From IMG/VR virus record IMGVR_UViG_3300042453_005121, positions 32,001 through 96,000 of that record: a stretch of 64,000 bases of DNA; one strand, written 5' to 3'. Every line of letters begins with the position of its first letter. Within the stretch, counting starts at the first letter, position 1. Source of the DNA: a virus. Positions 2,068 through 62,292 of this stretch are shown here, piece after piece. The notes beneath the pieces were generated by a model. That model saw nothing but the letters and a program-made list of their open reading frames with translations. It had not been told where the DNA came from and searched no databases. The translations under genes and the position numbers were made by a program.

Positions 2068-2073
2068 TAAATA
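2068..2073 (+). promoter_or_regulatory. Putative late promoter hexamer, leaderless
   Basis: TAAATA-catcc-ATG(2079). Confidence 0.65.
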
Positions 2074-2078
2074 CATCC

Positions 2079-2366
2079 ATGTTGACATTCAGGGAATTCA
2101 GGGACTCAGAGTCCTCCAAGGAAGAGGAAAAAGCTCAGGAAGTGGTCAGGAAGGGAATGAACCTTCAGGGCGACAGCGATTTCTGGGATGATTTTTTGAG
2201 CCTGTGCGCGAACGCCTCAGGCATGGCCGCCCTTTTGGACGTGTCGGTGGAAAAGGTGACGGCCTTGGGGGGCAGGATAGGAAAAATGAGAAAGGCGATC
2301 GGCGAGAAGGACGGCCACGACGCCAAAAAGAACTCCAAATTGATAAAAACCGGAGACAAGACGTGA
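2079..2366 (+). CDS. Hypothetical protein with capsid-targeting-like N-terminus
   Basis: Starts MLTFREFRDSE. Confidence 0.7.
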   Translation: MLTFREFRDSESSKEEEKAQEVVRKGMNLQGDSDFWDDFLSLCANASGMAALLDVSVEKVTALGGRIGKMRKAIGEKDGHDAKKNSKLIKTGDKT

Positions 2367-2704
2367 AGAAGTTCAGCGAATGGCGTGATTCCATTGACGA
2401 AAACATGAATGCCTCGGCCCTGCGCGGCACCATCGGGGGCGGTGCTGTGAGTGTGGATCCAATTTTGAGAAGCAAATTGCGATCAAAAATACTTGACATA
2501 GTCAAAGAATTTCCTGACAAAAATCCAGCCGAACTTTTTCAGGAAATAATGGCCGTGGTGGGTCAGCTTCTGACAAAGGGGGGAGGGGCGACCACGTCCT
2601 CCAATAAAATGTACAACCAGTTGAATCAACAGTCGGTACAGAATCCCGTTCAGAAGAATCAACAGGCGCAGGCCCAACAGAACCAACAAGTCCAAAACCA
2701 GTGA
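2363..2704 (+). CDS. Hypothetical tagged protein, Gln-rich tail; paralogue of 2712..3026
   Basis: GTG at 2363 (GTGA overlap with upstream stop), MKKFSEWRDSIDE. Confidence 0.7.
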   Translation: MKKFSEWRDSIDENMNASALRGTIGGGAVSVDPILRSKLRSKILDIVKEFPDKNPAELFQEIMAVVGQLLTKGGGATTSSNKMYNQLNQQSVQNPVQKNQQAQAQQNQQVQNQ

Positions 2705-2711
2705 GGAAAAA

Positions 2712-3026
2712 ATGAAATCAATAAGAGAGTGGATGACGGAAAAGGGAATGATCAGCGAGGAAGTCAGGGGAGTTGACCTAGCCAGATTGCTCGGCGGCAC
2801 CAGTTTCCAGATCAATCGCAAATTGGCGGTGAAGCTGAATCCGAAGCTAGATCAGGTTCTGAAGTCAGAGGAGTTCGAAGGCGAGAGTCCCGAGGAAATG
2901 CTTCGTCAGATCATCGCCATCGCCGCAGAGAAACTCGGCGGTGTCGAAGGAACCACCGTGTCGGCAAACAAGTTGGCCGGGGGACTCAACCAGGCAGAGG
3001 ACCCCATCGCTCAGGAAGTCAGATGA
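2712..3026 (+). CDS. Hypothetical tagged protein
   Basis: MKSIREWMTE; GAGG SD. Confidence 0.7.
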   Translation: MKSIREWMTEKGMISEEVRGVDLARLLGGTSFQINRKLAVKLNPKLDQVLKSEEFEGESPEEMLRQIIAIAAEKLGGVEGTTVSANKLAGGLNQAEDPIAQEVR

Positions 3027-3322
3027 AGTCCTTTCTGGTCTGGTTGGAAGGCGAGGAGAGTCCAGCCCTTTCCGAGCCCCAGCACAAGCAGGGCGAAGCG
3101 AACATGGGCTTGGATTCCATCGTCGAAAGGCGAATGAAGCAGATCATAATGGAATTGGAAGGTTCCGGGAAAGGAACTCAGCAGGAGATACTCGCATCGG
3201 TCCAGAAATACCTCAAGGCGAAAGGAGTGCAGGCCGAGAAACCTGCGTCACAACCTCCTCAGGACGACGCTCAAGGTGCCCAACAGGACGGAATGCAGAT
3301 GCAGCCCGCGATGGCCAATTAG
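3023..3322 (+). CDS. Hypothetical tagged protein
   Basis: MKSFLVWLEGEE; ATGA overlap. Confidence 0.7.
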   Translation: MKSFLVWLEGEESPALSEPQHKQGEANMGLDSIVERRMKQIIMELEGSGKGTQQEILASVQKYLKAKGVQAEKPASQPPQDDAQGAQQDGMQMQPAMAN

Positions 3323-3636
3323 ACATATTTCTCCCTGAACAAGTTCATCTTTATCGTCTCGACGTAGTCGTAAAGACACGTGTCTCCTTCGGACTTTATC
3401 TCCCTGAGCCTGTACACTGCCACCTTCTGACTGCCGTCTATCTGGTCATTGGTGAGGTATTCTATGAGTTTCTCGCCGAGTGTCTCGCGGGATATCTCGT
3501 TTCCGTCCACAATGCGCTTGAGTATTAGAGGCGGCTCCTCACCGTTTATCTCTATGACCCTGTCGAGGCATCCGTCCGCAGGGCCTCCGATGAGAAGGGC
3601 GTCCCATTCATATCCGTATCCTTCTTCCTTTTTCAT
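3319..3636 (-). CDS. Hypothetical protein
   Basis: IGGPADG motif typical of small phage proteins; ATGA overlap with upstream gene. Confidence 0.65.
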   Translation of the reverse strand: MKKEEGYGYEWDALLIGGPADGCLDRVIEINGEEPPLILKRIVDGNEISRETLGEKLIEYLTNDQIDGSQKVAVYRLREIKSEGDTCLYDYVETIKMNLFREKYV

Positions 3637-3956: not shown

Positions 3957-3993
3957 AGAATAAAAGAGTTAAATACGCTCGGTATATAGTCTC

Positions 3994-4521
3994 ATGCAAG
4001 GATTATGGCTTGAGACTTCTATTTCCGAACTTTACACCAACTCCCGGAAGGCATTCCCCGGAACGAGCAAAAGGGAGAACTCCACCGACACGGTGAGGGT
4101 GGAGCACCTTGATTGGGTGCCTTTTGAAGGCGTCCGGACTCTTTTCGTGAAGGCGACCGTGAACAACGAAGGAAGGAAAAATGAATCAATAATACTTTTC
4201 AAGGGAGTCAACTACGGAAAGGCCGAAGGCAAGGGCTTCGTGCCACTGATGTCGTCATCGGGACGAAAGGTTTTCGTGGAGAGGCTCTCGGTCTCCGACG
4301 ACGAAGTGCTGGTGAGATGCACATGTGGAGACTTCTTCTGGCGTTTCAACTACTACAACTCCGTGGACAAGTCGCTCTTTGGAAGAAAAAGATCCAAGTA
4401 CGAGGGTCAGAACCTTTGGAAGGCCAACCCCACGGAGAGTTCCGGGATGTGCAAACACCTCATGAAATTGGCTAAAATCCTGCGGGAGGCCGATTTATTA
4501 ATCGCCGGCCGGAATATATAG
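3994..4521 (+). CDS. SWIM zinc-finger protein
   Basis: VRCTCGDF...MCKHL (CxC...CxH); preceded by TATATA-N5-ATG. Confidence 0.75.
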   Translation: MQGLWLETSISELYTNSRKAFPGTSKRENSTDTVRVEHLDWVPFEGVRTLFVKATVNNEGRKNESIILFKGVNYGKAEGKGFVPLMSSSGRKVFVERLSVSDDEVLVRCTCGDFFWRFNYYNSVDKSLFGRKRSKYEGQNLWKANPTESSGMCKHLMKLAKILREADLLIAGRNI

Positions 4522-4527
4522 ATCAGT

Positions 4528-5091
4528 ATGACACACATGATCAATCCTAAAATAACCCAGGGCCAAAGGTTCCTGATAATAGGAACCATACTGGGCGGCA
4601 GCTCAATAATAAAGCCGAAGAAGGGCAAAAACTGCTACCTCTCCATGAGGGACAAGGACCTTTCGTGGCTCAAGTTCAAGGCCGATCAACTGAAGGAACT
4701 CACTTCTCAGTCGCCCTTGACCATAGAAAAGACCAACAGGTGGCATTCCGTCTGTTATCCTCTTTTCAACGAGTATTACGAGATGTTCTACAATGGAAAG
4801 AACAGGTCCCTCAAGGCCGAAAGTCTCAATCTTCTGCACGATTCAAGCATTGCGATATGGTTCGGCGATGCCGGGAAGTGCAAGAACGACAACGTCGTTC
4901 TGAACACGAACATATGGGGCAAGAAAGGCACCGAGACCATTGTTGAATATTTTGACAGCCTTGATTGGAAGGCTGGGATATTCATGGAGAGGAAGAACTA
5001 CAGGGTAAGGATGGACGAGGAGTCATCCAAGGACTTCCTGAAACTGGTCGGGCCTTACCTTCCCAAGAACAGAAAGTGTGGAAGGGACTGA
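4528..5091 (+). CDS. LAGLIDADG-type (LAGLIDADG_2-like) homing endonuclease, probably degenerate
   Basis: IIGTILGGSSI and IAIWFGDAG correspond to the LLGDG / WxMDDG helices; WLKFK and LNT motifs. Confidence 0.65.
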   Translation: MTHMINPKITQGQRFLIIGTILGGSSIIKPKKGKNCYLSMRDKDLSWLKFKADQLKELTSQSPLTIEKTNRWHSVCYPLFNEYYEMFYNGKNRSLKAESLNLLHDSSIAIWFGDAGKCKNDNVVLNTNIWGKKGTETIVEYFDSLDWKAGIFMERKNYRVRMDEESSKDFLKLVGPYLPKNRKCGRD

Positions 5092-5092
5092 T

Positions 5093-6242: not shown

Positions 6243-6255
6243 GCACGCCCCCTGC

Positions 6256-6705: not shown

Positions 6706-6762
6706 GCCTTGGCCTTTCTTTGGGAATGCATTCTATATTAAACAGAGTATCTAGGTCTCAAT

Positions 6763-9426: not shown

Positions 9427-9523
9427 CAAATTAACTCCTGTATTGCGGCACAAGGCTATATATGGCGACGAAAATTATTATGCGGATGCTATATAAGACG
9501 AGGTCTCATTTTTGGAGAAAGAT

Positions 9524-9751
9524 ATGAAGTCATTTTTGAACTGGGTTAAGGAAGAGAAACTTGAGCTTCCCGTGATCGACGCGCCGGAGGCCGAGAAGAC
9601 CGTTGAAGAGAAGACCAAGAGGACGGGGCTGAGTGCGAATTATCCGCCAGCCTATGTCTCGAGTCAGTATCCTCACAAGTACTTTAATCCGAGCAAGGCG
9701 ACCGCCGACCTTGACATACAGAACATCAAGAAGAAGGACGTGAATTCCTGA
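9524..9751 (+). CDS. Small tagged hypothetical protein
   Basis: MKSFLNWVKEE; GGAG SD. Confidence 0.7.
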   Translation: MKSFLNWVKEEKLELPVIDAPEAEKTVEEKTKRTGLSANYPPAYVSSQYPHKYFNPSKATADLDIQNIKKKDVNS

Positions 9752-9752
9752 T

Positions 9753-10764: not shown

Positions 10765-12051
<1,287 letters not shown>

Positions 12052-12209: not shown

Positions 12210-12255
12210 ACATCTGAACTGATATATAAGATGGGTAAGCAACAAGGAGGTTGTG

Positions 12256-12726
12256 ATGTTCAAGGAGTATGCCAATCCGGTGGGAGAACCGCACAGGATT
12301 GAGGAGGTAGAGAACAAGGTTCAATTCTATTGCCGTCTTTGGGACTCAAGAAAAGACCACAAGTCAATGTGGCTTCCCAAGGTGAGCATGTCGGCCGTGA
12401 CCAACTTCCTGCTCATGGCCCTTGATGATTTCGTGGTCGCCGTGAGCGCGGTGGTCATATCGGGGCCTGACAAGAAGGCGACGGTACTGGACGCCATAAG
12501 CAGGCTTTACGACTACACGGTGGCCGAGGCGATTCCAATCTGGCTTAAGCCTTTCGCTGCTCCTCTAAAGAATTACATAGTCTACGTCCTCGTCTCAAAC
12601 GCCATTGACTGGATGGTGGCCAAGTACAGGAACGGCAGTTGGAAATATGGCCAGAGTGCCATGGAGAGGGTTCTCATGCTCGCAGACTTGAGGATGTCCG
12701 TTTGCAATGCAAGGAGGCAAAAATGA
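12256..12726 (+). CDS. Hypothetical protein
   Basis: AAGGAGG SD, TATATA upstream, coupled to the protease gene. Confidence 0.7.
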   Translation: MFKEYANPVGEPHRIEEVENKVQFYCRLWDSRKDHKSMWLPKVSMSAVTNFLLMALDDFVVAVSAVVISGPDKKATVLDAISRLYDYTVAEAIPIWLKPFAAPLKNYIVYVLVSNAIDWMVAKYRNGSWKYGQSAMERVLMLADLRMSVCNARRQK

Positions 12727-14207: not shown

Positions 14208-14704
14208 ATGAATGGTTTTCCGGTTATCTTTAGGACGAAATTGTCCAGTTCTTTGAAATCTGTCTCGGGCGAGGTCGTCCTTCTTATCCACACCGGAACG
14301 ATTGATTCGGGGCCGACGTCGCCCAAGATTATTCTTGAGCCGGAACTGGTCTCTTCAAATGTGACGTCATAAGGAGCCAGTGTGTCAACCGCGATGGACG
14401 GAGCCGTGGTGTCCACGGGGGTGGGCGAGGTTCCTATCTCTATGGTTGAGCCACCGGAAGACTGCGAGTAGACGTATATTCCGGCGTCGTACAGCGAGTC
14501 GGACACGCTTATGTTTTTGATGTACACGCACCTGTAGTCGGTGCGACCCGACGAGGCCTGCTCGGTAGTGATATCAGAAAAGATGTTGTTCAGCGTCCCT
14601 AGGACGGGAGTATTTGATATTTCTCCTCCCAAGGAAAGATTCGGATTTGAATTGCTTGAACCACCCGAAAGAAAAAATTGTATTTGGTTTGACGTTATTG
14701 TCAT
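14204..14704 (-). CDS. Probable virion structural (tail-associated) protein
   Basis: SNPNLSLGG, GRTDYRCVYIKN, VWIRR; Ser/Thr-rich; TAGATA-N5-ATG. Confidence 0.6.
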   Translation of the reverse strand: MTITSNQIQFFLSGGSSNSNPNLSLGGEISNTPVLGTLNNIFSDITTEQASSGRTDYRCVYIKNISVSDSLYDAGIYVYSQSSGGSTIEIGTSPTPVDTTAPSIAVDTLAPYDVTFEETSSGSRIILGDVGPESIVPVWIRRTTSPETDFKELDNFVLKITGKPFI

Positions 14705-14773
14705 GTTGGTATCTATTGATCTGCTTGATTTTTGGACAAAATGGAATAAACTACGGCGACACGAGGCCAAGCC

Positions 14774-15748: not shown

Positions 15749-16181
15749 CCGGCTTGAGCTTCTCTTGGTGCCTGTCCGGCTCGTCCTTCAAACGGTGCAT
15801 CATGTTCATCAATTCCTTGACCATCTCAGAAGGGGTGTCGTTCTTGCACTTCTCAGACCTCTGAACGGCTATGCTCTTGCGGTCCTTGTTATAGAAGCCG
15901 TTTGATATTATGAAACAACCGCCGTCCTCCCGGCCGCTGTAACTCACCATCCCGACCCACTCGCCGTCGTCCCAGTTCCTGGACGAGGCCATGATTCTGA
16001 TGGGTCCGTTGTCAAATACCTGCTTCACGTGGTAGCCGCGTTTCTTGACGGCCGCGCTCACGTAACCGAGGGCTATGCGGGCGAAACCTTCAAGGACCTC
16101 CTTTGTCTTGGTCCTGTAGTTTACTTCCACGCTGTAGCGGTGGTCTCCCTCGTTCAGTTTCATCCAGTCGTGGAACCTCAT
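15723..16181 (-). CDS. Tagged hypothetical protein
   Basis: MRFHDWMKLNEG; TATATA-N5-ATG. Confidence 0.7.
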   Translation of the reverse strand: MRFHDWMKLNEGDHRYSVEVNYRTKTKEVLEGFARIALGYVSAAVKKRGYHVKQVFDNGPIRIMASSRNWDDGEWVGMVSYSGREDGGCFIISNGFYNKDRKSIAVQRSEKCKNDTPSEMVKELMNMMHRLKDEPDRHQEKLKPVKMKRGPK

Positions 16182-16200
16182 ACCACTATATATGAATGAA

Positions 16201-18754: not shown

Positions 18755-21598
18755 TCACACCGGCCAGTACTCCTCCACCACCGCCAGATAATCCTTGAAC
18801 GATTCTGACATAGCTTCTTCCGCTCCGGGAATTTGCGCAGCCACTGCCGCCTGCATTTCCTTGTCTATCTTCTTGATTTCCTTCTGGGCGTCTACGATCT
18901 TCTTGAGTGCCTCGGGATCGTGTTCGGCATCGTGATAATGCTTCCTGTATCTTTGTATTATCGCGGCGATCTCTCTTTTCTTCTGAACCCTGTCAAACAA
19001 ATCCCTGTCCAAGCCAGAGCCCACGATGTACTGTATGTTGACGGGATGGTTCGTGTTGATCCTGTATATCCTGCCTTCGCTCTGCTCGGCTGACTCCGGC
19101 GTCCAATCAAAGTCGTTGATGACCATGTGTTGGGCCGCGTTCGGGAAGTCTATGCCCGTTCCGCCCATCTTCATGCTCATGACCAGAACCTTGGCGTCGG
19201 GATCGTTTGTGAATCTGGACTTGACCTTTTCCCTGTCGGCCTTCTTTGTGTCGGACAGGTAAGTGAGAACGTGGAACTTCGGGTCTATCTTTTTGAGTGC
19301 CGCATCGATCTTCTCGGCCAGTTGACGGCCCGCCGCGATGAAATTGCTGAACACGACTGTCTTGCTGGCTGCGGGTGGTTTGTCCTTTCCCTCGTTGACG
19401 ATCCTTATGACCTCTGCGGTCGTCTTGTCGGTTTTTAATTGCGCCACGGCTTCCCTTGCCGCTATGAGACGGGATATGGGAAGACTCGGGTCTTTGTATC
19501 CCGATATCCTGTCGGAGAATATGCCTTGGAACTTGTCTTGATCTATGGAGGCTCCTTGATTTGAAACCGACAAGTTCGGCATGTCCCTGATGTCTTCCTT
19601 GCTTCTTCTCACGTATACGCCCGAAAGGTTGAGCCACTTGTTGAGCCTTTCTGCGGCGCGTATCTCATCCTCGTCGCTGTCGCTCTTCTGCAGCGATCCT
19701 CCGTATCCGCCTCCCACCATGCCTGCAAAGTCCCTCTTGAACTTGGCCTCGCTGACCCTTCCGAGGTGATGGCCTGTCATGGCGAGTTGATTCCTGACGT
19801 CCATGGGCTTGTTGGACGATACGGTGGCGGAGGCTCCCCACTTGGTCGGTATTTTCTCAACGACCTTGGCGATGTTCTGGCTTCTCTTGCTCTTGCTGTG
19901 CTTCACCTTGTGCAGTTCGTCGAAGATCACGATTCCGAATCCGGTGCCGGAAAGCTTGGAGACGACTTGGTCCAGGTTCTTTCCGCTGGAGAAGTTTTCG
20001 TAGTACAAGACCGTCCATTTGCCGGGATTGAGCGGGTCCGTGGAGATTTTGGATTTTTCTTCATCTCCTACGACGTTCGTTATTTCTTCCACCCACTGCT
20101 TCTGGGTGGCTTTGAGTGTGACGACGAGAACGGGCTTGCCGTCCCTCTGCATCCTGAGAGCAGCGGCGCTGACAAGTTGGATCGTCTTGCCCACGCCAGT
20201 TGCGTCACCGAGTATCGCGTGGTCGCGTCCGTAGAGGAAGGCTATGCCCTTCTTCTGCGCGTCGTACAATTCAAATTTGCTTTCAGGAAGTTTGTCCTCG
20301 ATCTTGGACGCGAATTCTTCGTCGTCGTCGTGCTTTCCTTCCCACACGGATTCCTGAAGTCTTCCGTCCTTGAGCTTAGCCCGGACTATGTCTCTCAACT
20401 CGGACACCTCGTATCCGAACCTCTTGAGCAGTCTTCCGAAATTGACGTACTGCTTGTAGTTTCCCGAAACCGTGTAGTAGAAATCCGCCCTGTTCCATTC
20501 GTAGTCCGGGAATGTGTATTGTATTGACTCCTTGATGAATTCCTTCCTTCCCTGATCCAAGGCCCTGTAGTTGACCCTTATCCTCAACTTGTCCCCGCTG
20601 TCGTCGGTGAATTTGATCACGTCGGAGGTGGATCGCGGGGTTTCGGTGGGCGTGGTCTTTTCTCTGGCGAATTTCTCAAGCGATGTCGTGTCGTATCCTT
20701 GGCGGATGAGTTCGTCGGCCACGGACCGGAAATTGGCCGAGTCGGTGTCTATGAGGAACCTTGAAGGCCCCGGCTTATAGGATATTCCCTTGGGAGAAAG
20801 ACCCTTGCTCTTCATTGCTTCAAAAGTGGCCTTGCTTCGTTCGTACGGAACGTTGAACCTGATGGCTATCTTTGTGCCGAAGTCTGTCTTCTCCTCACCT
20901 ATGATTTCTATTTCATCAGCTTTGGAGGGAGTCGCCTGCTGCGAAGCCGGGAGAGATGGTTCGGAACCAGATTCGTACTCCACATCCATGCCTTTTGATT
21001 TGATGACCTGTGCGATTTGGGGGAGTATGCCCTTGTGCACCCTGTAGGTGTGCATGCCGGTCCTGTCCTGGGAGAATTTCTTGAACCGAGGGAGTTTCAT
21101 GTTGCCATAGGCGTCCTGCGAACGTTCGGCACCCTCGGCCTCGAGAGCGGCGTCCACGATCCTGTTTATCTGGATCGTCATGGACCTGTCCACCCCGTGG
21201 GGGATGTAGACCTTCACCTTGCCGTACTCAAGCGGCTGTTTGTCGTACACAACGGCCTTGTCGCCGGACGAACCCGCACGAACGGCCTCCATGTCCTTGG
21301 CAACCAGAGAACTGATCTGCTGGTAATTGGGGACTTGGGTATTGCGGTAGTGGGACAGCATCCGGAGCATGAGGTCGGCAGCCCTTACGGGTACCGATAT
21401 GCTGTCGATGTGTCCGTTGGCGAGAAGGGATTGGTAGGAGGTCCAGTCCCCCTTGTTGAATCCGTAATCGTTGAATTCCTTGGGGACTCCCCTAGAGGCC
21501 ATGTCCCTCATCGCGGCCTGAAGGGCCTTGATGCCCGGCCCGGTGACCGTGGACTCAACCGACTCCCTTATCCCCATCCAATCAGAAAAACCCATCAT
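18755..21598 (-). CDS. SNF2-family (HARP/SMARCAL1-like) helicase/ATPase with tagged N-terminus
   Basis: LYDAQ, GDATGVGKT, DELH, SAT, GGTGIDF, QSEGRIYRI; MMGFSDWMGIRES; TAGATA-N5-ATG. Confidence 0.88.
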   Translation of the reverse strand: MMGFSDWMGIRESVESTVTGPGIKALQAAMRDMASRGVPKEFNDYGFNKGDWTSYQSLLANGHIDSISVPVRAADLMLRMLSHYRNTQVPNYQQISSLVAKDMEAVRAGSSGDKAVVYDKQPLEYGKVKVYIPHGVDRSMTIQINRIVDAALEAEGAERSQDAYGNMKLPRFKKFSQDRTGMHTYRVHKGILPQIAQVIKSKGMDVEYESGSEPSLPASQQATPSKADEIEIIGEEKTDFGTKIAIRFNVPYERSKATFEAMKSKGLSPKGISYKPGPSRFLIDTDSANFRSVADELIRQGYDTTSLEKFAREKTTPTETPRSTSDVIKFTDDSGDKLRIRVNYRALDQGRKEFIKESIQYTFPDYEWNRADFYYTVSGNYKQYVNFGRLLKRFGYEVSELRDIVRAKLKDGRLQESVWEGKHDDDEEFASKIEDKLPESKFELYDAQKKGIAFLYGRDHAILGDATGVGKTIQLVSAAALRMQRDGKPVLVVTLKATQKQWVEEITNVVGDEEKSKISTDPLNPGKWTVLYYENFSSGKNLDQVVSKLSGTGFGIVIFDELHKVKHSKSKRSQNIAKVVEKIPTKWGASATVSSNKPMDVRNQLAMTGHHLGRVSEAKFKRDFAGMVGGGYGGSLQKSDSDEDEIRAAERLNKWLNLSGVYVRRSKEDIRDMPNLSVSNQGASIDQDKFQGIFSDRISGYKDPSLPISRLIAAREAVAQLKTDKTTAEVIRIVNEGKDKPPAASKTVVFSNFIAAGRQLAEKIDAALKKIDPKFHVLTYLSDTKKADREKVKSRFTNDPDAKVLVMSMKMGGTGIDFPNAAQHMVINDFDWTPESAEQSEGRIYRINTNHPVNIQYIVGSGLDRDLFDRVQKKREIAAIIQRYRKHYHDAEHDPEALKKIVDAQKEIKKIDKEMQAAVAAQIPGAEEAMSESFKDYLAVVEEYWPV

Positions 21599-21666
21599 GT
21601 TTCTATCTAGCAAAACTGACACTCATTTGCGCGTTCTAAAACCATCACATTTTGATATATATCAAC

Positions 21667-22923
21667 ATGATGAATTTCAGAAAATGGTTGAACGAGGCCG
21701 CGATGTTGATGAGTCCCGCCGAGGCCGTGCGCGAACTTGGACTGGCACCCGAGGGAACTCTGGAGAGGGAGACGCTGAATGCAGTCTACAGGAAGATCGC
21801 TCTGGAGACGCACCCGGACAGGAATCCCGACCCCGAGGCGGCGGCAAGGTTCAAAAGGGCGGCAGAAGCCTACGAGGTGCTTCTTCCTTTCGTGGGAGGA
21901 CCCGTGCCGGGCGAGGGTTCCGTGCCTCCGGAAAGAAAATACGAATACGACCCAGAAAATGACGCCAGAAACGAATTCTACAAACAATGGGCAAGGCATT
22001 TGGCTCCAACTGGACAATACTCCATGGGAGAGTTTGACGAATGGATCAGGCAGATCGTTGAAAACCAATTCTTTCAGGTGAAGGTAAGACAGACGGTCGG
22101 CTACGTTACGTGGGGCATGAAGATCGGAAAGGACGAGCACACGATGCCCCTCGGTAGCGTCAACAGGACCTTCAGGGTGACAGGATACGCAAAAAAAGGC
22201 ACGGGCGTCCAGAAATCGCCGATGGACTCAATCAAGGAACTCTTCGCCCCATACATGTCAAGGCTTCCGGAGTTCATAGTGGACATGAAGATAAAAAACA
22301 GCGCTAATTGGCGGGAGGCGTGGATAACCATGGAACTCCCGAGCGGCAAATACCAATCGGTCAGTTTCTTCCCGGTGGAGAAGAAGGAGAAGAAGGCTCC
22401 AGGCGTGGGTATGAAGAAGGACGAAGTTTCGGAACACTTGCGATCTTCGGGCTTGACGTTCGCGGGGAGTTACACGGCCGGTGACAACTACGGCGTGTCC
22501 GAATCGCCAATGGGTTACTTCGTTCAACTCGGGCCGAAGGTCATAAGGATAATAAGGAGATACAGGGGAGACTACCACGGGAAGAAGACGATAGAGACCG
22601 TGAACGTTGCGTCCGAGCACTACGGAAACATGACAAAGGAACTTCTTGACAAGTACGTTGCGACCGTACGGAGGAGGTCGCAGCAAAACGAGGCGTTCGT
22701 TCACAGTAGCGATATGAACCCTAACTTCGCCATGGCCGTATATTCAATAATGCACAACAAGGCCTCGGCTGCAGACTGGAATCTTATTGACAGCATCCCG
22801 AAGGACAAAGCCCTAGGAATGATCAGAGGGATTCTGGAGGACAACGGCGTGGAGGGCGAAGAACTGGATCGTGAGATGGAGTGGTGGGGAAAACAAATAG
22901 CCTCAACCGGGAAGTGGAACTGA
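21667..22923 (+). CDS. J-domain (DnaJ-like) protein with tagged N-terminus
   Basis: YRKIALETHPDRNPDPEAAARFKRAAEAYEVL; MMNFRKWLNEA; TATATA-N5-ATG. Confidence 0.85.
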   Translation: MMNFRKWLNEAAMLMSPAEAVRELGLAPEGTLERETLNAVYRKIALETHPDRNPDPEAAARFKRAAEAYEVLLPFVGGPVPGEGSVPPERKYEYDPENDARNEFYKQWARHLAPTGQYSMGEFDEWIRQIVENQFFQVKVRQTVGYVTWGMKIGKDEHTMPLGSVNRTFRVTGYAKKGTGVQKSPMDSIKELFAPYMSRLPEFIVDMKIKNSANWREAWITMELPSGKYQSVSFFPVEKKEKKAPGVGMKKDEVSEHLRSSGLTFAGSYTAGDNYGVSESPMGYFVQLGPKVIRIIRRYRGDYHGKKTIETVNVASEHYGNMTKELLDKYVATVRRRSQQNEAFVHSSDMNPNFAMAVYSIMHNKASAADWNLIDSIPKDKALGMIRGILEDNGVEGEELDREMEWWGKQIASTGKWN

Positions 22924-29004: not shown

Positions 29005-29329
29005 GGTCGTCGGGCAGCCTTTCGTATATCTTGTCGCACTCCTCCTCGTGTCGGAGTGCTTCTCCCATGTTTCCCTTGATTCTTTCTTCCATGGCGTGCA
29101 TTTTGTTTGTTGCGTAGACGGCTAGCAGTTTGGTGGCCTCCATGGCCATTTCCGGCTCGCTGATTCCGGTGAGGTGGACGGATTCGTCTGGCCTTGGGTT
29201 TCTGTACATGAGCACGAAGCTCTTGAGTTGATCTGCGGTCATGGCGTCCAGATTCGGCACATTGGTCTCGGCGTACTGGCTTTCGCTGATTATTCCGGCG
29301 AGTAGCATTTCATATTTTGTCTTCTTCAT
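28994..29329 (-). CDS. Hypothetical protein
   Basis: LAGIISES; ATG 5 nt from the shared TATATA. Confidence 0.65.
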   Translation of the reverse strand: MKKTKYEMLLAGIISESQYAETNVPNLDAMTADQLKSFVLMYRNPRPDESVHLTGISEPEMAMEATKLLAVYATNKMHAMEERIKGNMGEALRHEEECDKIYERLPDDLRW

Positions 29330-29334
29330 GCAAC

Positions 29335-29340
29335 TATATA
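29335..29340. promoter_or_regulatory. Bidirectional palindromic late promoter
   Basis: CAT-gcaac-TATATA-tcccc-ATG: 5 nt to each divergent start codon. Confidence 0.75.
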
Positions 29341-29345
29341 TCCCC

Positions 29346-29609
29346 ATGGATTCCAACCTTGTTGAAATTTCCGGTTGGGTTGGTTCGGTGCTGCTCGCCT
29401 TCTGCGGCCTTCCTCAGGCATTGGAGTCATGGAGGACTGGGTCTTCTTCTGGCGTGACGTGGGGGCTTCTATTGATGTGGGGGGTCGGAGAGGTCTTGAC
29501 TCTGGTCTATGTGTTGCCGAAGATGGAGATTCCCTTGCTTTTCAATTATGCGGCCAACATCGTCTTCCTTTTGGTCATAACCTATTTCAAGGTCTGGCCG
29601 AGGTCTTGA
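29346..29609 (+). CDS. PQ-loop / SemiSWEET-like membrane protein
   Basis: GWVGSVLLAFCGLPQA, three TM helices, NY..N. Confidence 0.8.
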   Translation: MDSNLVEISGWVGSVLLAFCGLPQALESWRTGSSSGVTWGLLLMWGVGEVLTLVYVLPKMEIPLLFNYAANIVFLLVITYFKVWPRS

Positions 29610-31133: not shown

Positions 31134-32629
31134 TTCTCACCTACTTCACTCTTGAGTGATACCTTGGCATTGTCCAGGAACATCTCCTTGTCAAAGCCGG
31201 AAAACCCTCCGTATGGGGATTCAAACTTGAAGCTTTCCTTGTTTTGTAAATAGTCCTCCAAATCCAACTCCTCGGTCTTGGATATGAAGTCCGAAAGGTC
31301 CTGGCTGTGAATCTGGAGTCTGTACGGGTGGTTCTCCATGTCCACCCAGAATCCATTTTCATCGCTGCTGTCCATGGCCTTCTTGAACGATTCCCACGCG
31401 TCCTTCTCGGAGCCGGATACGTACGCGTCTTTGTATGCCGACGAAAGGGCTTCGCGCACCGAATTACTCGCATCCCAAGCAGCCTCTGCGTCATCTACCT
31501 CGTGGCCCTCCTCCTTGGCGACCCTGATCATCGTATCTTCCAGTTCATCATCGGCTTTATGGGACATGTCGTTCCAACTTATGTCCCAACTTATGTTATC
31601 GGCAAAGTCCATGTCGCCGCCGAACCAGTGACCGAAACCTCCCATGCCTTCCTTGTCGTCTGTAGAAACTATGTTCCCCAAATCCTCAAGGTCGTACTGC
31701 TTCAGCGTCACCGTGTCTCCTTCAAGGCTCATGTCTTTCGGGACGAGGCTTAGATGGCTGGCTATCTCATATTTTCTGCCTGTTTGCAGCATGTGCTTTA
31801 CCATATTGCCTATGTTTGGCTTTATCGCCTCTATGATCTTGCGGTCGGTTTCTTGGAGGTCTTTGAGGCTGAAGTTCCTTTCCGGGGCATATCCTCCTCC
31901 CTTGATCACGTGTATGGACGGGTGCTTTAGAAGCTCCATGATCGCCGGATGGTATCTCTTGGATGGCTTGCTGTTGCCTCTGCCCTTCATTTCGCCGAGA
32001 ATTCCGTCGTTGACTATGAACGTGAGATGAGCCTTGCCTTCTGGGTCTCTCAATGAAAGTATGTTGTCGCCTTCTATCGCGCCGGAATTACCGCAGTGGC
32101 CCATGGCTTTGGCTTCTTGCGAACAGTATCCCCTTCCGAGTGAAGCCCATTTCCATCCTTGCCACGGACCTTTGAGTTCTATGAAAGTTTCATATTCATC
32201 CGAGGGCATCTCTGCCTTCCTCGCGGCGATGTCCTCGTGCCACATGTCCGAATCGGCCTTAAGTTGCATTGTCGTGTAGGATGCGTTGTTGAGTTTGCTC
32301 TTGGTCTGCGGCCATGTTCCGAATATGAAGTCCCCGAACCTGTTCATTAACTGGTTTGCGTGATTGGCTACGAGCGTATCCATCCTGACCTTGTCGGAGA
32401 TCGGTGCACCTTTTCTCGGAAGAGACGATTTCATTTCCTCTAGGGTGTTCTTTGTGAGAAAATTAACGAGATAATCCCCTTCCGGCCCTAGTTTCTTGAA
32501 TTGCTCCATCTTTTGCAGATGATGCCTGACTGCATTTTTGATGTCGGGAATATTGGGATCATTTTTGGCCTTCAATAATTGGGCCACGGTCGCGTTCTCG
32601 TGGAACAGCCACTCCATGAATGTCTTCAT
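31130..32629 (-). CDS. Tagged PcfJ-like domain protein
   Basis: MKTFMEWLFHEN; EAKAMGHCG, ILSLRD, GEMKGRGN; TAAATA-N5-ATG. Confidence 0.6.
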   Translation of the reverse strand: MKTFMEWLFHENATVAQLLKAKNDPNIPDIKNAVRHHLQKMEQFKKLGPEGDYLVNFLTKNTLEEMKSSLPRKGAPISDKVRMDTLVANHANQLMNRFGDFIFGTWPQTKSKLNNASYTTMQLKADSDMWHEDIAARKAEMPSDEYETFIELKGPWQGWKWASLGRGYCSQEAKAMGHCGNSGAIEGDNILSLRDPEGKAHLTFIVNDGILGEMKGRGNSKPSKRYHPAIMELLKHPSIHVIKGGGYAPERNFSLKDLQETDRKIIEAIKPNIGNMVKHMLQTGRKYEIASHLSLVPKDMSLEGDTVTLKQYDLEDLGNIVSTDDKEGMGGFGHWFGGDMDFADNISWDISWNDMSHKADDELEDTMIRVAKEEGHEVDDAEAAWDASNSVREALSSAYKDAYVSGSEKDAWESFKKAMDSSDENGFWVDMENHPYRLQIHSQDLSDFISKTEELDLEDYLQNKESFKFESPYGGFSGFDKEMFLDNAKVSLKSEVGEK

Positions 32630-32660
32630 GGGGATATTTAGATGGATACTAGTTTATTTC

Positions 32661-33595: not shown

Positions 33596-33641
33596 TTCTA
33601 ACTCTTATTGATATATAGTTTGTTCCAGATAGGAGAGTAAA

Positions 33642-34043
33642 ATGACGTTGGTTGTACCGGACGAGGGCGAGAGAAGGCTTCTTAGTTATATAGTTAACAA
33701 GTCGTCGCCGACCAATCTCGTGCTTCATCTTTATGTGAACAACGTGAGTCTCGGAGCCGAGACTTTCACGGGCGCGAGTTTCACTGAAGCGAGTGCGTCT
33801 GGGTATGCGGCAGTGACCCTCACTGGTTCCAACTGGACCGTTGGTACGACCACAGGAGTTTCTTCTGCGACGTACAACAGCAGCATCACATTCACATTCA
33901 GCGTCGGCCAGAGCGTTTACGGCTATTACGTGACCGACACCTCGGGAAATATCCTGTGGGCCGAGGAGTTTCCTGGTGCCCCTTTCGCCCTTCCTGGGGG
34001 CGGCGGGGAGATATCGGTGACTCCGCGACTCCAATTGAACTGA
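33642..34043 (+). CDS. Virion structural (tail-associated) protein
   Basis: LHLY, FTEAS.SGYA, TFTF..YGYYV, WAEEF pattern; AGGAG SD. Confidence 0.7.
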   Translation: MTLVVPDEGERRLLSYIVNKSSPTNLVLHLYVNNVSLGAETFTGASFTEASASGYAAVTLTGSNWTVGTTTGVSSATYNSSITFTFSVGQSVYGYYVTDTSGNILWAEEFPGAPFALPGGGGEISVTPRLQLN

Positions 34044-36213: not shown

Positions 36214-36244
36214 AATCAACTAGATATTGTATCGAGGTAAATGC

Positions 36245-37228
36245 ATGCCTGTCAATCCCGGCAACCACCAGGACAAGAAACTGAACGAGTGCGACTCAAT
36301 ACCGCCTGCGGAGACCAGCAGGAACAGGGAAGGGCCCTCTAGGGATTGTCCGGGTCCGGAGGGCCTCGGTCTAGGGTGGGTGGAGAGAGCCGCCAAGTCC
36401 AAGGTCGGCGTCGGAAGAGAGGCCCAGTGCGATCCCATGCAGACGGGTCAAATTGTAGAAGATGTAAACAATCCCGAACGCCAAGTTTTATACAGGTATT
36501 CAAAAAGTCTTCGCGGGTGCGACGAAGCAATGCTTGATCTTTTCAGCAATCTGGTTGTTCTGGACGAGGATGGAAAGGCCCACAAGGTACCGATCATATG
36601 GGGCACTCAGGAAAGGGCCGTGGCTTGGATACTTCAGGACAACGTACGCAAGGATGGAAGTCTGGTTGTGGAGCGTATAAGGCTTCCCATGATGACGATA
36701 TATTCTTCGGGAATTGAGTTTGACCAAAGCAGGTACACGTATCACAAGGCGTTGGACTTGATGAGGAGATTGGACCCCAAAGGAAGGCCGGGATTGCACG
36801 GCAGCGAGAAGTTTGAGAGAGACACGGTTTTCGGCGTGGCGCGAGGAATTCCCGTGAATAAATCATACACGCTCATAGCCTGGACCATGTACATGGAGGA
36901 CATAGATCAAATTTTGGAACAGGTCATGCTAAAATTTTCTCCAGTTGCATACATACGTGTGCGAGGAGTCAATTGGGAGACTTCGGTGTCCCTGGATTCT
37001 GTGGCAAACAACGTGGATTATGAGCCCGGCGATCAAAACCAAAGAATCATAAAATTTGAGTTTAATTTGACCGCAAGATCATACATACCACAACCAATGG
37101 TCCGTAACAAGTCGGTCTTGGGCACGAAAGTGGATATCCACAACAGTGTTGAGGAACAGGACATTACGGAGGTTTTGGCGAGGATAGAGGACAGCGTCAA
37201 AGACGTGGAAAGGCAACTTAATGATTGA
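36245..37228 (+). CDS. Tail terminator / sheath stabiliser (T4 gp15-like)
   Basis: KVPIIWGTQE, RIRLPMM..SGIEFD, DQILEQV, RIIKFEFNLT; located just upstream of the sheath gene. Confidence 0.8.
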   Translation: MPVNPGNHQDKKLNECDSIPPAETSRNREGPSRDCPGPEGLGLGWVERAAKSKVGVGREAQCDPMQTGQIVEDVNNPERQVLYRYSKSLRGCDEAMLDLFSNLVVLDEDGKAHKVPIIWGTQERAVAWILQDNVRKDGSLVVERIRLPMMTIYSSGIEFDQSRYTYHKALDLMRRLDPKGRPGLHGSEKFERDTVFGVARGIPVNKSYTLIAWTMYMEDIDQILEQVMLKFSPVAYIRVRGVNWETSVSLDSVANNVDYEPGDQNQRIIKFEFNLTARSYIPQPMVRNKSVLGTKVDIHNSVEEQDITEVLARIEDSVKDVERQLND

Positions 37229-51222: not shown

Positions 51223-51763
51223 AGAAGAAATCGTCCTCAAACTTCATAAGGTCGTCATAAAGGACGACCTTCCAGTCCCTGTATTTCATCTGGTAGGCGA
51301 ACGAATCCACGAGGTCCGACTCCCTCAGAAAGGCGAGTCTGGGCTTGCGATCCTTTTTCCAGAGCAGCATTGGTTTTCTCTGGCACCTGGTCGAGTCATC
51401 GGTGACCTGCCGGAGAAACTCATCCAACTCTGCGTGGCCTCCCTCAAAGGCCGATACTAGGTCAATGTCGTTATATCCACCTTTGCTCTCTAAAACAAAA
51501 TTGAAGTTGTCGGGACAAACTATATCACCAGAATAGATGTTTTTGGCGGTATGCGACAGGTGCACGTTCTGTGCTCCCCAGCGGTTTCCGCTGCCCACCG
51601 ATCGCGAAAATTTTCCCCACGTCGGGTTGGAAGAAAGGATGCTGGCGAATCGCAGATTCAGGTTTTTTACAAGTTCAAGTTCTACTCTTTTGCCCTTGAT
51701 TCCTGATTTTATCTTTTTCGGCTTCTTTTGAAATATATCATCCACATCAAGTTCTTCATCCAT
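51197..51763 (-). CDS. Holliday junction resolvase-like PD-(D/E)xK nuclease
   Basis: KGKRVELEL, RSVGSG, GDIV, FVLESK; TATATA-N5-ATG. Confidence 0.75.
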   Translation of the reverse strand: MDEELDVDDIFQKKPKKIKSGIKGKRVELELVKNLNLRFASILSSNPTWGKFSRSVGSGNRWGAQNVHLSHTAKNIYSGDIVCPDNFNFVLESKGGYNDIDLVSAFEGGHAELDEFLRQVTDDSTRCQRKPMLLWKKDRKPRLAFLRESDLVDSFAYQMKYRDWKVVLYDDLMKFEDDFFFSSPACAQ

Positions 51764-51768
51764 CAAAA

Positions 51769-51774
51769 TATATA
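51769..51774. promoter_or_regulatory. Bidirectional late promoter
   Basis: CAT-N5-TATATA-N6-ATG between divergent genes. Confidence 0.65.
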
Positions 51775-51780
51775 GGAATA

Positions 51781-52062
51781 ATGAAATCAATAATCCTGAT
51801 GACTACATTTTTGATGATTTTCCTTGTGTGGGAATCCAAGCAACCCGTGGCGGTCAAAAAGAACGAACCAGACCTGAGGACGAGGGTCAAAGAGATAGAG
51901 TTTCAAAAGGCGGAAGAGATATATCTCTACCACCGTAGCAGATGCGAACAACTCAGAGAGGTCCACCAGCCAAATCACAAAGACATGATGGAAGCCGAGT
52001 TGAAATTGAAACTCAGCCGTCTTGATCTGGAGCTTGCCTCAATAAACAAAGAGTTGGACTGA
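51781..52062 (+). CDS. Hypothetical protein with N-terminal TM/signal
   Basis: MKSIILMTTFLMIFLVW. Confidence 0.6.
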   Translation: MKSIILMTTFLMIFLVWESKQPVAVKKNEPDLRTRVKEIEFQKAEEIYLYHRSRCEQLREVHQPNHKDMMEAELKLKLSRLDLELASINKELD

Positions 52063-52088: not shown

Positions 52089-52457
52089 TCAATTTTCGTC
52101 TTCAGGCTCTTCTTCAGAAGGCCCTATGTCATTGACCGGGGCCTCGCCAGAAATAGATTCCATTTGCTGCTGGACGGCTTTCAGGACGTCCTTCAATTCG
52201 CCTTTCTCTTCTATGGCCTTCATTATTGCAACTCCACATTTCTGAAGGACGGTCAAGTTTGACCGTTCGCTGTCAGGCCAATGAGTGTGGATCGTGCGCC
52301 TGATCTGGTTGACTATGGTCTCGGCATTGCTTACCAGATGACGAGGACCCATATCCTCGGCATTGTCATTGAGGTCTTGGAGGGCACTCAGTATGTCTGA
52401 GACCCTCTGGGCAAAGAATGCTTTGCTTTCGTCAAGTATGAATTCCTTGAATTGCAT
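52089..52457 (-). CDS. Tagged hypothetical protein
   Basis: MQFKEFILDES; TAGATA-N5-ATG. Confidence 0.7.
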   Translation of the reverse strand: MQFKEFILDESKAFFAQRVSDILSALQDLNDNAEDMGPRHLVSNAETIVNQIRRTIHTHWPDSERSNLTVLQKCGVAIMKAIEEKGELKDVLKAVQQQMESISGEAPVNDIGPSEEEPEDEN

Positions 52458-52474
52458 GCGCTTATCTAGGGCCT

Positions 52475-56296: not shown

Positions 56297-56367
56297 TTTT
56301 TGTTTTCCTTATTGTAATAAACGACGAGGTATCTAAGATTGTTAATCAAAATTTTGCATCCGATTGA

Positions 56368-60310: not shown

Positions 60311-60391
60311 GGATTTTAGCATGATCTTACCAAGACACGCCCAAGCAGTCCATAGATGTTCGTATCAATATTTTAGAATTGAACAATAAAT

Positions 60392-61150
60392 ATGAATATC
60401 ATGAAACTAGTCATAAATTCAAATGTGAATTACGAAAAACCACTTCGCAAATTGTTTTTGTCCTTGCGTGGAGCGGGATTCAGGGATTACAAGAACATAA
60501 TCGTTGTGAGGGGCCAATCAGAGTCTGACGAGGAGCCCAAAAAGGTCAAAATTTCCAAGGTTGTGAAATTGGGCATTCGTGATGAACTGACGTTAATCAA
60601 CATGCGTTTGAATAACTTTGACTACACTGGGTATCATGCCCTGAATGTTTATAAAGAACACCCCCTCGTGAGTTCAGACTGGTATATGTACATTTTGGAC
60701 ACCGTTACGGTGAACAGCCTATTCGTGTCGTTCATCAATTCGGCATGCCCTGATCCGGATGAGTTGATGATCACCATGCGTCCTCATTCAAACATATGTG
60801 CATTTGGCAGTGAGGTGATAAAGAACTACGGAAACAATTTCGGCACGCCGTTGACAAAGGACGAGGCAATAAGACTTGAGTTTGATTCGCCGATAGAAAA
60901 AAACGTAGCGAGCATATCAAGGTTCGGAAGAATAACTCAGATGAATACGAGATATTTGGTAGGAGAGGCCGACATATATGGAACGGGACATCCAAGAAAA
61001 AATCTTTATTACCCAGACTTCGGATTGAGCAAATGGATATTCTGGGGGAGGACTGGTGATATCTTGGGAGACGTCCAAGAGAACAAAGTGTGGACGAGCG
61101 ACGAGATCGCCAGATTCAAAAAAGAAAACAAGCCCGAATCATTTTTTTAA
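60392..61150 (+). CDS. Hypothetical protein, possibly glycosyltransferase-related
   Basis: NNFDYTG, WYMYILDT; AT-rich region near other GT genes. Confidence 0.55.
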   Translation: MNIMKLVINSNVNYEKPLRKLFLSLRGAGFRDYKNIIVVRGQSESDEEPKKVKISKVVKLGIRDELTLINMRLNNFDYTGYHALNVYKEHPLVSSDWYMYILDTVTVNSLFVSFINSACPDPDELMITMRPHSNICAFGSEVIKNYGNNFGTPLTKDEAIRLEFDSPIEKNVASISRFGRITQMNTRYLVGEADIYGTGHPRKNLYYPDFGLSKWIFWGRTGDILGDVQENKVWTSDEIARFKKENKPESFF

Positions 61151-61453
61151 CGATTTGCTCAAAGCGGTCCAGACGTCAGAACTTTTTATCTTTTGAACCG
61201 TCGTTCCGCCTGGTTGCGGCGAACTGGGATCGCCTGGGGCCGATGGCGCTCCTATGGAAGGTCCTCCCATGGGCGGTCCTCCCAAGCCCATAGGCGGACC
61301 ACCGCCCCCTAAGCCTGGCGGAGGGCCGCTGCCAAATCCGGGGATGCTCGGCCCTCCCGGAGGTGGGCCTGGTGGGGGTGGTGGCTTTCCTCCACTTGGT
61401 GGAGGAGCCGGTGGAGTCGCTTCTAATATAAGGAATTGGTGAAAAGTAAGCAC
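61139..61453 (-). CDS. Tagged Pro/Gly-rich protein
   Basis: MLTFHQFLILEA then PPPPPGPPPGG; GTG with TATATA 4 nt upstream. Confidence 0.65.
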   Translation of the reverse strand: MLTFHQFLILEATPPAPPPSGGKPPPPPGPPPGGPSIPGFGSGPPPGLGGGGPPMGLGGPPMGGPSIGAPSAPGDPSSPQPGGTTVQKIKSSDVWTALSKSLKK

Positions 61454-61506
61454 GAATTATATAGCCCAGATAATAGATATATTTGTATGCAACAAGGAGT
61501 GTTTAA

Positions 61507-61677
61507 ATGGACGCAAAGGATTTGATGACCTTTATTGTTACCCTTTTCGTTCCGCCTCTCGGGGTGGCTCTGAAATCGGGATTCGGAACTCATTTTTGGG
61601 TGAATCTGGCTCTTACGGTGTTCGGTTTTTACATTGCGGGGATGGTTCACGGCGTTTACGTCGTGCTCAAGGACTAA
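61507..61677 (+). CDS. YqaE/Pmp3-family membrane proteolipid (56 aa, not in ORF track)
   Basis: LFVPPLGVAL..G....FWVNLALT..G...G..HG.YVV; AAGGAG SD. Confidence 0.85.
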   Translation: MDAKDLMTFIVTLFVPPLGVALKSGFGTHFWVNLALTVFGFYIAGMVHGVYVVLKD

Positions 61678-62264
61678 AAATTAATTTGCGGAATCCTTGA
61701 TATCACCAAATTCCAGTTCGTCGAAACCCATTTCTTGAATGTTTCTTCGGCCTTTTTGGGGCCGACCTCATCGGTTTTGCCTTTGGTCTGAAACTCTATC
61801 TCGTGGGTTGTTTCGTGTATTATGGTGCTAGCTATTTCCAGAACGGCTTCTTTTGTGTCGCCAAACTCCCTGACTATCTTTTGTACGTTCACGTGAATCA
61901 CGTCACTAGGGGCGAGCTGTCTTTCATCTATATCTGGAATGTATTGTTTTATAACTGAATTTGGTATTCTTTGTAAGTTTTGCTGTTGTGCAGCGGAATG
62001 GCCGAATTTGAACCTTATTTTATTAGAAGCGGCAGGACCTATGATTTTTTTGTTTTCTGAAGAGTTGTATAGCCCATAAACTCCGGAATATAGGGGTGCA
62101 ATGGTACTTATGTTGTTCAAAAGCTTCTGTCCTGTTGATTTGGAGTACAACTGGACCAGTTTTATTGCATACTTTGCCTTGTCGTACAACTGGTCTATTC
62201 TGCTTTCCACATTTTCTGTTCCGAGGGTGGAATTCTCCCCGAGCCATGATTTGAAATGTCCCAT
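61674..62264 (-). CDS. Tagged HExxH metallopeptidase-like protein
   Basis: MGHFKSWLGEN; IIHETTHE...DE..P. Confidence 0.65.
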   Translation of the reverse strand: MGHFKSWLGENSTLGTENVESRIDQLYDKAKYAIKLVQLYSKSTGQKLLNNISTIAPLYSGVYGLYNSSENKKIIGPAASNKIRFKFGHSAAQQQNLQRIPNSVIKQYIPDIDERQLAPSDVIHVNVQKIVREFGDTKEAVLEIASTIIHETTHEIEFQTKGKTDEVGPKKAEETFKKWVSTNWNLVISRIPQINF

Positions 62265-62292
62265 TTGAATTATATATAATCGGGAGAAAAAA

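Follow-up and report, generated by a model that had tools for sequence, protein, structure and literature searches.

A TATA-like hexamer, TA(A/T/G)ATA, stands exactly five nucleotides before the ATG of many genes in a fragment of an uncultivated huge phage, and most of these genes are probably transcribed from a start within about a base of their AUG; we put the probability of this reading, which rests on sequence comparison, at roughly 0.68. The sequence analyzed here, called the window, comprises the 64,000 nucleotides at bases 32001–96000 of one virus record (IMG/VR record IMGVR_UViG_3300042453_005121; 150,762 bp, 48.5% GC). By the contig (G000) we mean the whole 150.8-kb record, and window coordinates count from its base 32001. 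The hexamer is referred to below as the box, and N5 denotes five nucleotides between the box and the start codon, with N4, N6, and so on used likewise. The contig is a fragment of an uncultivated huge myovirus with T4-like head and tail genes and a replisome that is not T4-like; we place it among the huge myoviruses because LR756511.1, an uncultured phage of 595,163 bp, has a major capsid protein 78.6% identical to its own. LR756511 is the nearest public genome, complete and of 42% GC, and was used for replication of the spacing test.

Spacing of the Box and Signatures of the Start Codons

Twelve matches to TA(A/T/G)ATA-N5-ATG occur in the window, compared with 0.55 ± 0.70 expected (maximum 3) from 100 dinucleotide shuffles. 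An initial annotation of the window had listed 11 gene starts of this kind, and all 11 exist where it placed them; the twelfth match (21648–21661, minus strand) precedes no gene and arises because it is the other strand of a palindromic TATATA at 21656. Ten of the 11 are credible gene starts, and one, at 29346 on the plus strand (87 amino acids [aa]), is uncertain and was missed by the codon-usage caller. The peak at 5 nt that the annotation expected was thus found against shuffles, and it is also found against other spacings: a scan of k = 0–30 over the whole contig gives 15 sites at k = 5 and a mean of 4.0 elsewhere (Poisson P ~2e-5), and 14 of the 15 open an open reading frame (ORF) of at least 60 aa. 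No spacing peak was seen in the same contig scan with GTG, TTG, or CTG as the start.

The box also emerges when no motif is presupposed. Among hexamers counted from -60 to +30 of ORF starts, TATATA ranks first (33 observed versus 3.6 expected), TAGATA is the second upstream hexamer (13 versus 1.4), and TAAATA is enriched as well (12 versus 2.3); TACATA is present near gene 5' ends only at background. Of 38 TATATA loci, 27 lie within -65 to +30 of gene 5' ends, a zone that makes up 12.5% of the genome. Genome-wide over-representation of hexamers, considered without gene context, was uninformative.

Two modes appear in the distance from the box to the next in-frame start: a narrow one at 5 (with 6), and a broad one at 13–36 in which a Shine-Dalgarno (SD) sequence intervenes. 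About 20 contig genes, and ~64 in LR756511, have the box 4–6 nt (mostly 5) before ATG. The annotation had also noted the box at greater distance before SD-led genes; it lies 13–36 nt from the starts at 9426, 12256, 26283, 33642, 34667, 36245, 40296, and 44537. At 40296 it is doubtful as a promoter, because it is only 13 nt off and overlaps the SD sequence.

The N5 genes differ from SD-type genes at the start codon itself. An SD 4-mer is absent in 20 of 21 of them, which bears out the claim that such starts leave no room for one. They start with ATG in 14 of 15 cases in the contig and 36 of 40 in LR756511, as opposed to 46% and 71% of SD-type controls. Position -1 holds a pyrimidine in 12 of 14 contig genes and 28 of 36 LR756511 genes, as opposed to 47% and 44% of controls (P = 0.005 and 1e-4). 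A pyrimidine at -1 followed by a purine at +1 is the initiation dinucleotide preferred by bacterial RNA polymerase. About 20 unrelated proteins of the window and contig, some encoded by leaderless-type and some by SD-led genes, start with the peptide M-x-x-F-x-E/D-W-L..E, called the tag below. Using this peptide as the anchor reproduces the N4/N5 peak in both the contig and LR756511, and since the start codon is then fixed by the shared N-terminal peptide, it is defined independently of the promoter. The annotation had proposed leaderless mRNAs with +1 on or next to the A of AUG; the geometry, the absence of SD sequences, the ATG and pyrimidine biases, and conservation all support this, and the 5' ends are what we infer from them.

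Anatomy of the Box

Aligned sites yield the consensus heptamer (A/C)TA(T/A/G)ATA. The base just before the box is A or C in 51 of 63 gene-proximal sites and in 52 of 91 sites elsewhere (P = 0.003), and a mild A/T-rich patch is present at about -16 to -19. Sites aligned on the hexamer show no -35 element and no TGn. Sigma-70 needs a T at -7, and the box is poorly suited to it because the hexamer ends in A; scans for sigma-70-type promoters did not rise above shuffles. From the sequence, the hexamer behaves as a -10-only promoter element, a reading favored because it is also found 13–36 nt upstream of SD-led genes.

T4 late promoters likewise consist of a -10-like element without a -35 (PMC2988020; PMC7892883). 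The T4 late box, TATAAATA, lies at -13 to -6, and phage Aeh1 has the variant CTAAATA from -12 (PMC1524935). If the geometry here is of the T4 type, TADATA occupies -11 to -6, five bases follow, and +1 would therefore be the A of ATG. A -10 box ~10 nt before the start codon is an accepted mark of leaderless genes and has been validated by differential RNA sequencing (dRNA-seq) in other organisms (PMC6028130). An archaeal TATA box was considered and ruled out, as that box lies ~26 nt from leaderless starts (PMC6028130).

Conservation in Relatives

In LR756511, the spacing scan finds 45 sites at N5 and 33 at N4 against a background of ~21 (P ~4e-6). ORFs of at least 60 aa are opened by 36 of the 45 N5 sites and 28 of the 33 N4 sites, compared with ~20%–30% at most other spacings, and 21 and 13 of these ORFs, respectively, carry the tag. 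Seven pairs of contig and LR756511 genes have a clearly aligned N-terminus (33%–48% protein identity). Five keep the box at N4–N5, and the other two have TATGAT-N5 in one case and an SD-led start in the other. The LR756511 ortholog of the RusA gene has the same start residue, behind TATGAT-N5; the ortholog of the gene starting at 52457 (minus strand) has TACATA-N5-ATG, and that of the gene starting at 62264 (minus) has TAGATA-N5-ATG. In a wider set of relatives, a 175-aa gene (3994, plus strand) has TA(T/A)ATA at N4–N6 in ten of ten distinct orthologs, and in three close relatives the gene at 4528 (plus) likewise has N7, against N5 in LR756511. The ortholog of the SNF2-type helicase gene on L002 keeps TAAATA-N5-ATG, and that on L001 is SD-led and lies inside an operon.

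The deepest sample comes from a 152-aa core gene (15723–16181, minus), for which we collected 58 nonredundant IMG/VR orthologs with a tag-defined ATG. TANATA is present at N3–9 in 35 of the 58; 19 of these 35 boxes are at exactly N5, and a pyrimidine is at -1 in 17 of the 19. TATATA-N5-ATG is invariant among the nine closest relatives whose N-terminus aligns, and between orthologs the spacer and flanks are unrelated. Four orthologs have TATATA at N13–16 followed by a GAGG-type SD, and eight have an SD only. Such switching between leaderless and short-leader forms behind the same box would be hard to explain unless the box were a promoter.

Beyond this group the signal changes. The more distant contig G001 has TATATA enriched upstream of genes and no clear N5 peak. 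Another distant contig, G003 (IMGVR_UViG_3300036876_000145, L012–L017), has no N5 peak; its top upstream hexamer is GTATTA (19 observed versus 4.3 expected), not TATATA, and it may have a different promoter specificity. A scan of IMG/VR for TATATA-N(0–30)-ATG-tag gives no usable spacing statistic, as the matches listed, at least 117, are mostly chance hits plus one repeated N8 family. Also among the matches listed are other contigs, some of 250–570 kb, with the box 3–8 nt before tagged starts.

A Candidate Sigma Factor, Late Timing, and Capsid-Targeting Tags

A 176-aa sigma consisting of region 2 only is encoded at 41754–42284 on the minus strand (Pfam Sigma70_r2, 6e-6; phrog_234 "late sigma," 4e-7), and a region-2-only sigma fits the box because the promoter is -10-only. 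Its AlphaFold2 model (mean predicted local distance difference test score 85) has four long helices. In a Foldseek search of PDB the best matches are all sigma domain 2 chains (E ~6e-3, probability 1.0) from housekeeping sigma-A, and the top 50 do not include T4 gp55; the best matches among viral structures (BFVD) include late sigmas of T4-like phages, with E of 0.015–0.13. A sequence search of PDB returns only SigA region 2 (E = 0.039). The annotation had called this protein gp55-like, and the region-2-only architecture agrees with that; the protein may be an ortholog of gp55, given its matches to late sigmas (E of 4e-7 to 0.13). The protein has more than 1,100 homologs at 68%–84% identity, some on contigs of 260–470 kb. 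A Pfam search of the contig and LR756511 yielded no beta-prime domain of RNA polymerase.

Boxes stand ahead of the tail operon (window 36221) and of the head operon, where the box at contig 5727 is followed by the protease, scaffold-position, and capsid genes; none is found before DnaB, SSB, UvsX, or the PolA-like gene. We infer the late timing of box genes from this placement and from the cargo tags. Tagged genes are expected to be late, because prohead-destined proteins must be made late.

In T4, the capsid-targeting sequence is the first ten residues of IPIII: targeting depends on residues 4 and 7, and cleavage on residues 8 and 10 (PMC9026906). The tags here have aromatics at positions 4 and 7, L or I at 8, and E at 10–11, in line with the T4 rule; MKTFMEWLFHE, MLRFKEWLISE, and MGTFKEWLINE are examples. 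A gp21-like prohead protease (contig 7596–8309; phrog_207 at 1e-48) is encoded beside the major capsid gene (contig 9266–10693). The tag thus resembles a T4-like capsid-targeting peptide, with putative packaging and cleavage. Tagged starts in the window include those at 2079, 3023, 9426, 9524, 10765, 16181, 21598, 21667, 23446, 28123, 31133, 32629, 52457, 61453, and 62264. Roughly half of the N5 genes are tagged; untagged ones include the RusA-like gene, 3994 (plus), and 14704 (minus). Two adjacent minus-strand genes, 29973–31133 and 31130–32629, both begin with MKTFMEWL. The upstream one is N5-type, and the downstream one (29973–31133), whose start overlaps the stop of its neighbor, has no box.

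Weighing the Alternatives

Several observations weigh against leaderless transcription from a late, T4-type promoter. The gene set is the product of a home-made codon-usage caller. The N5 spacers of the contig are not AT-rich, unlike the region downstream of T4 late boxes, which is (PMC2988020). Variants at N4, N6, N7, and N8 exist beside N5, so some transcripts would carry one to three extra bases or start inside the codon, and the tagged gene starting at 61453 (minus), with GTG at N4, is an exception to the ATG rule. Some orthologs lack the box (those on L001 and L176, and the LR756511 ortholog of 34079). To these must be added three points that touch on timing and on the reader of the box. 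The box also precedes ribonucleotide-reductase genes (56335, minus), which are early genes in T4. LR756511 carries three sigma-region-2 ORFs (169, 192, and 335 aa; LR756511.1 positions 299966–300178 [minus], 464536–464706 [plus], and 153144–153323 [minus]), and assigning the box to the 176-aa sigma is therefore a guess. Finally, neither PF09116 (gp45 clamp) nor PF02768 (beta clamp) was detected in the contig or LR756511 by a Pfam search, which may miss divergent clamps; the clamp coupling that is a hallmark of T4 is thus not supported.

These last three points, together with the predominance of housekeeping sigma-A domain 2 and the low rank of gp55 among the structural matches, would suit a box that is a true promoter but is read by the host housekeeping sigma or another phage sigma, in a program that is not specifically late. 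We regard this as unlikely but worth keeping in mind. The A that ends the hexamer in place of sigma-70's T at -7, the missing -35 and TGn, and the lack of enrichment of sigma-70-type sites speak against the housekeeping sigma; head and tail operons have the box whereas the replication genes do not; and the 176-aa sigma belongs to the clade's core genes and is highly conserved.

A second explanation, which we consider improbable, gives the hexamer a role in translation: N5 genes would be translated mainly from longer transcripts begun farther upstream, and the AT-rich hexamer would be an unstructured, S1- or bS21-friendly site of SD-independent initiation. Several N5-type genes do follow a gene on the same strand (2079 plus, 4528 plus, and 52457 minus), and the lineage encodes IF1, IF3, and bS21, factors of a kind known from huge phages, which in some cases lack SD sequences (PMC7162821). 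The same hexamer, however, occurs 13–36 nt before genes with a strong SD, where it cannot be the ribosome site, and orthologs alternate between N5 and a box followed by an SD. It is transcription starts that show sharp spacing and a -1 pyrimidine. Moreover, some divergent starts are only 10–17 bp apart, with one palindromic TATATA common to both, and these pairs have no same-strand upstream gene that could give a leader.

It is very hard to credit that the pattern arose through the copying of a single 5' module (box, ATG, and tag) among paralogs, or by chance in AT-rich intergenic DNA: the tag on about half of the N5 genes and the two adjacent MKTFMEWL genes would suit duplication, but spacers and flanks all differ, untagged genes are N5-type as well, shuffles give only 0.55 matches, and the spacing is kept in orthologs at 33%–74% protein identity with diverged flanks.

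Individual Sites and Genome Context

Three N5 sites with a single gene lie on the plus strand. TAAATA-CATCC-ATG (2068..2081) opens the gene at 2079–2366 (95 aa; MLTFREFRDSE, tag-like), which has no SD 4-mer upstream; TATATA-GTCTC-ATG (3983..3996) opens the 175-aa gene at 3994–4521; and TATATA-TCAAC-ATG (21656..21669) opens the gene at 21667–22923 (418 aa, MMNFRKWLNE), divergent from the SNF2-type helicase gene. That helicase gene (18755–21598, minus, 947 aa, MMGFSDWMGIRE) follows TAGATA-GAAAC-ATG (21596..21609). The other minus-strand sites are TAGATA-CCAAC-ATG (14702..14715; gene 14204–14704, 166 aa, phrog_13135), TATATA-GTGGT-ATG (16179..16192; the 152-aa core gene, MRFHDWMKLNE), TAAATA-TCCCC-ATG (32627..32640; gene 31130–32629, 499 aa, MKTFMEWLFHE), and TAGATA-AGCGC-ATG (52455..52468; gene 52089–52457, 122 aa, MQFKEFILDE).

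Palindromic TATATA sites face both ways. The one at 29335–29340 (29327..29348) is N5 from ATG in both directions, toward a gene at 28994–29329 (minus, 111 aa) and the uncertain ORF at 29346–29609 (plus, 87 aa). The one at 51769–51774 (51761..51783) is N5 from the RusA-like gene (51197–51763, minus) and N6 from the gene at 51781–52062 (plus), across a gap of 17 bp. A third (33612..33644) sits between the starts at 33595 (minus) and 33642 (plus, head-protein-like), 16 and 24 nt from them. At 16181 (minus) and 16192 (plus), the divergent starts are 10 bp apart, and on the plus strand no spacer separates TATATA from the ATG (TATATATG), which bars the plus-strand gene from using it at N5. At contig 113959–113975, in a large gap upstream of the PolA-like gene, two TAGATA boxes form an inverted repeat (atctagaatatactcTAGATAa / atctagagtatattcTAGATAa).

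The near-variants named by the annotation are present as well. TATATA-N7-ATG (4515..4530, plus) precedes the gene at 4528–5091 (187 aa), TATATA-N6-ATG (62262..62278, minus) the gene at 61674–62264 (196 aa, MGHFKSWLGE), and TATATA-N4-GTG (61451..61463, minus) the tagged gene at 61139–61453 (104 aa, MLTFHQFLILE); the start at 51781 (plus) is N6, and that at 10720 (minus) is N6 with GTG. Leadered, SD-led use of the box is exemplified by TATATA at 12223..12258 (plus), with 27 nt containing AAGGAGG before the ATG at 12256, and by TAGATA at 36221..36247 (plus), with 18 nt containing GAGG before the ATG at 36245, ahead of the tail operon of sheath stabilizer, sheath (37450–40260), and tube genes.

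The contig is ~28% complete according to CheckV. The codon-usage caller finds 170 genes and 67 strand switches in it, and hence many short transcription units. The window codes for the tail sheath, two tail tube proteins, a baseplate hub, and the sheath stabilizer; the contig also encodes a portal, the gp21-like prohead protease, a gp23-like major capsid protein, DnaB, SSB, UvsX, a PolA-like polymerase, and ribonucleotide reductase. A megablast search of GenBank phages with 20 kb of the window gave no match. PrkA (contig 139227–141305) has its best match, at 70%, on L246 (CALFYV010000090.1), a 546-kb contig in a Bacteriovoracaceae metagenome-assembled genome; the remaining bacterial matches are at 52%–57% identity and scattered over many phyla. 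CALFYV010000090.1 is probably another huge phage of the same clade, and its binning with Bacteriovoracaceae is a weak hint at the host. Separately, a 639-aa protein (window 23443–25362, minus) combines DUF7487 repeats with a Mom-like/GNAT acetyltransferase domain and is a candidate DNA-modification enzyme.

Discussion

The best account of these data is that (A/C)TA(T/A/G)ATA acts as a T4-late-type promoter, most likely read by host RNA polymerase with a small region-2-only phage sigma, for which the 176-aa protein at 41754–42284 is the candidate. Where the box lies 13–36 nt before the start, as at the head operon, the tail operon, and others, it would give a short leader with an SD sequence; where it lies 4–6 nt before ATG, transcription from or next to the A of AUG would give a leaderless mRNA. 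Many of the N5 genes are single-gene units at strand switches, and for tagged ones the box, AUG, and tag would together make a very compact unit through which cargo proteins are expressed and packaged.

A more speculative extension, which we think rather unlikely as a whole, is that box, AUG, and ten-residue tag (~45 nt) are portable, so that across the clade any captured ORF would become late, packaged, injected cargo, and that IF1, IF3, and bS21 of the clade retune host ribosomes late in infection to favor translation of the leaderless mRNAs. LR756511.1 encodes IF3 (93 bits), IF1 (95 bits), and bS21 (27 bits), at 325993–326250 (minus), 180009–180197 (minus), and 332226–332384 (minus), respectively; none is found within the 150-kb fragment. 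These genes make some interplay with initiation conceivable, but the annotation's suggestion that leaderless mRNAs could be translated during a shutdown of canonical initiation finds no support in the window.

If leaderless transcription from this box is the right reading, the box is the first promoter to be defined at sequence level for these uncultivated huge phages, whose clade is large and widespread, and a sizeable share of their genes would lack a ribosome-binding site. SD-dependent gene callers probably put such starts in the wrong place and overlook the N-terminal tags. One compact element would tie transcription to translation initiation and to the packaging of cargo in the virion. 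This reading would offer a testable explanation for the initiation factors and bS21 of such phages, and for phage engineering in laboratory strains the box and tag could serve as a minimal expression-and-packaging cassette.

The closest known counterpart is the T4-type late promoter, which shares the -10-only, A-ending TATA-like box, the absence of a -35, the preference for A or C just upstream, the placement before head and tail operons, and a small region-2-only phage sigma; the distance to +1 would also agree, provided that +1 at N5 sites falls on the A of ATG. The core differs, being TATATA, TAGATA, or TAAATA here and TATAAATA in T4. T4 uses a gp45-type clamp, whereas none was found here by Pfam (gp33 was not searched for), and the replisome here has a PolA-like polymerase and DnaB helicase and is not T4-type. 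Late genes of T4 have SD leaders, whereas a large subset here lacks an SD. The tag can be compared with the T4 capsid-targeting sequence, with which it shares the aromatics at 4 and 7, L/I at 8, E at 10–11, and a gp21-like protease next to the capsid gene. Here, however, ~20 or more tagged genes occur per 150 kb, including that of a 947-aa SNF2 helicase; many are joined directly to a promoter, with no leader between; and packaging and cleavage are putative. T4-type phages also have mobile cassettes in which an early promoter and a stem-loop flank novel ORFs. These resemble the present modules as short regulatory units on single accessory genes in plastic regions, but here a late-type box abuts the ATG in place of an early promoter and stem-loop.

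Isolated leaderless phage mRNAs are textbook knowledge (lambda cI from PRM, P2 gene V). They share with the genes described here a transcript that starts at the A of AUG, in our case a predicted one; those are isolated regulatory genes served by host sigma-70, whereas here there are dozens per genome, conserved across a clade. In Actinobacteria and Deinococcus, leaderless genes (the GeneMarkS-2 "group C," with a Pribnow box ~10 nt before the start) likewise combine a fixed short distance, no SD, and SD-led genes alongside. The difference is that the box here is phage-specific and probably read by a phage sigma, that other genes have strong AAGGAGG-type SD sequences, and that single-gene cargo units are overrepresented in the leaderless class. 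In phiKZ, dRNA-seq showed no leaderless transcripts (PMC8244752), and our literature search brought up no account of such transcription in huge phages. What is new is the combination of a T4-late-like phage box, dozens of leaderless-type genes per genome, clade-wide conservation, and enrichment among capsid-tagged cargo genes.

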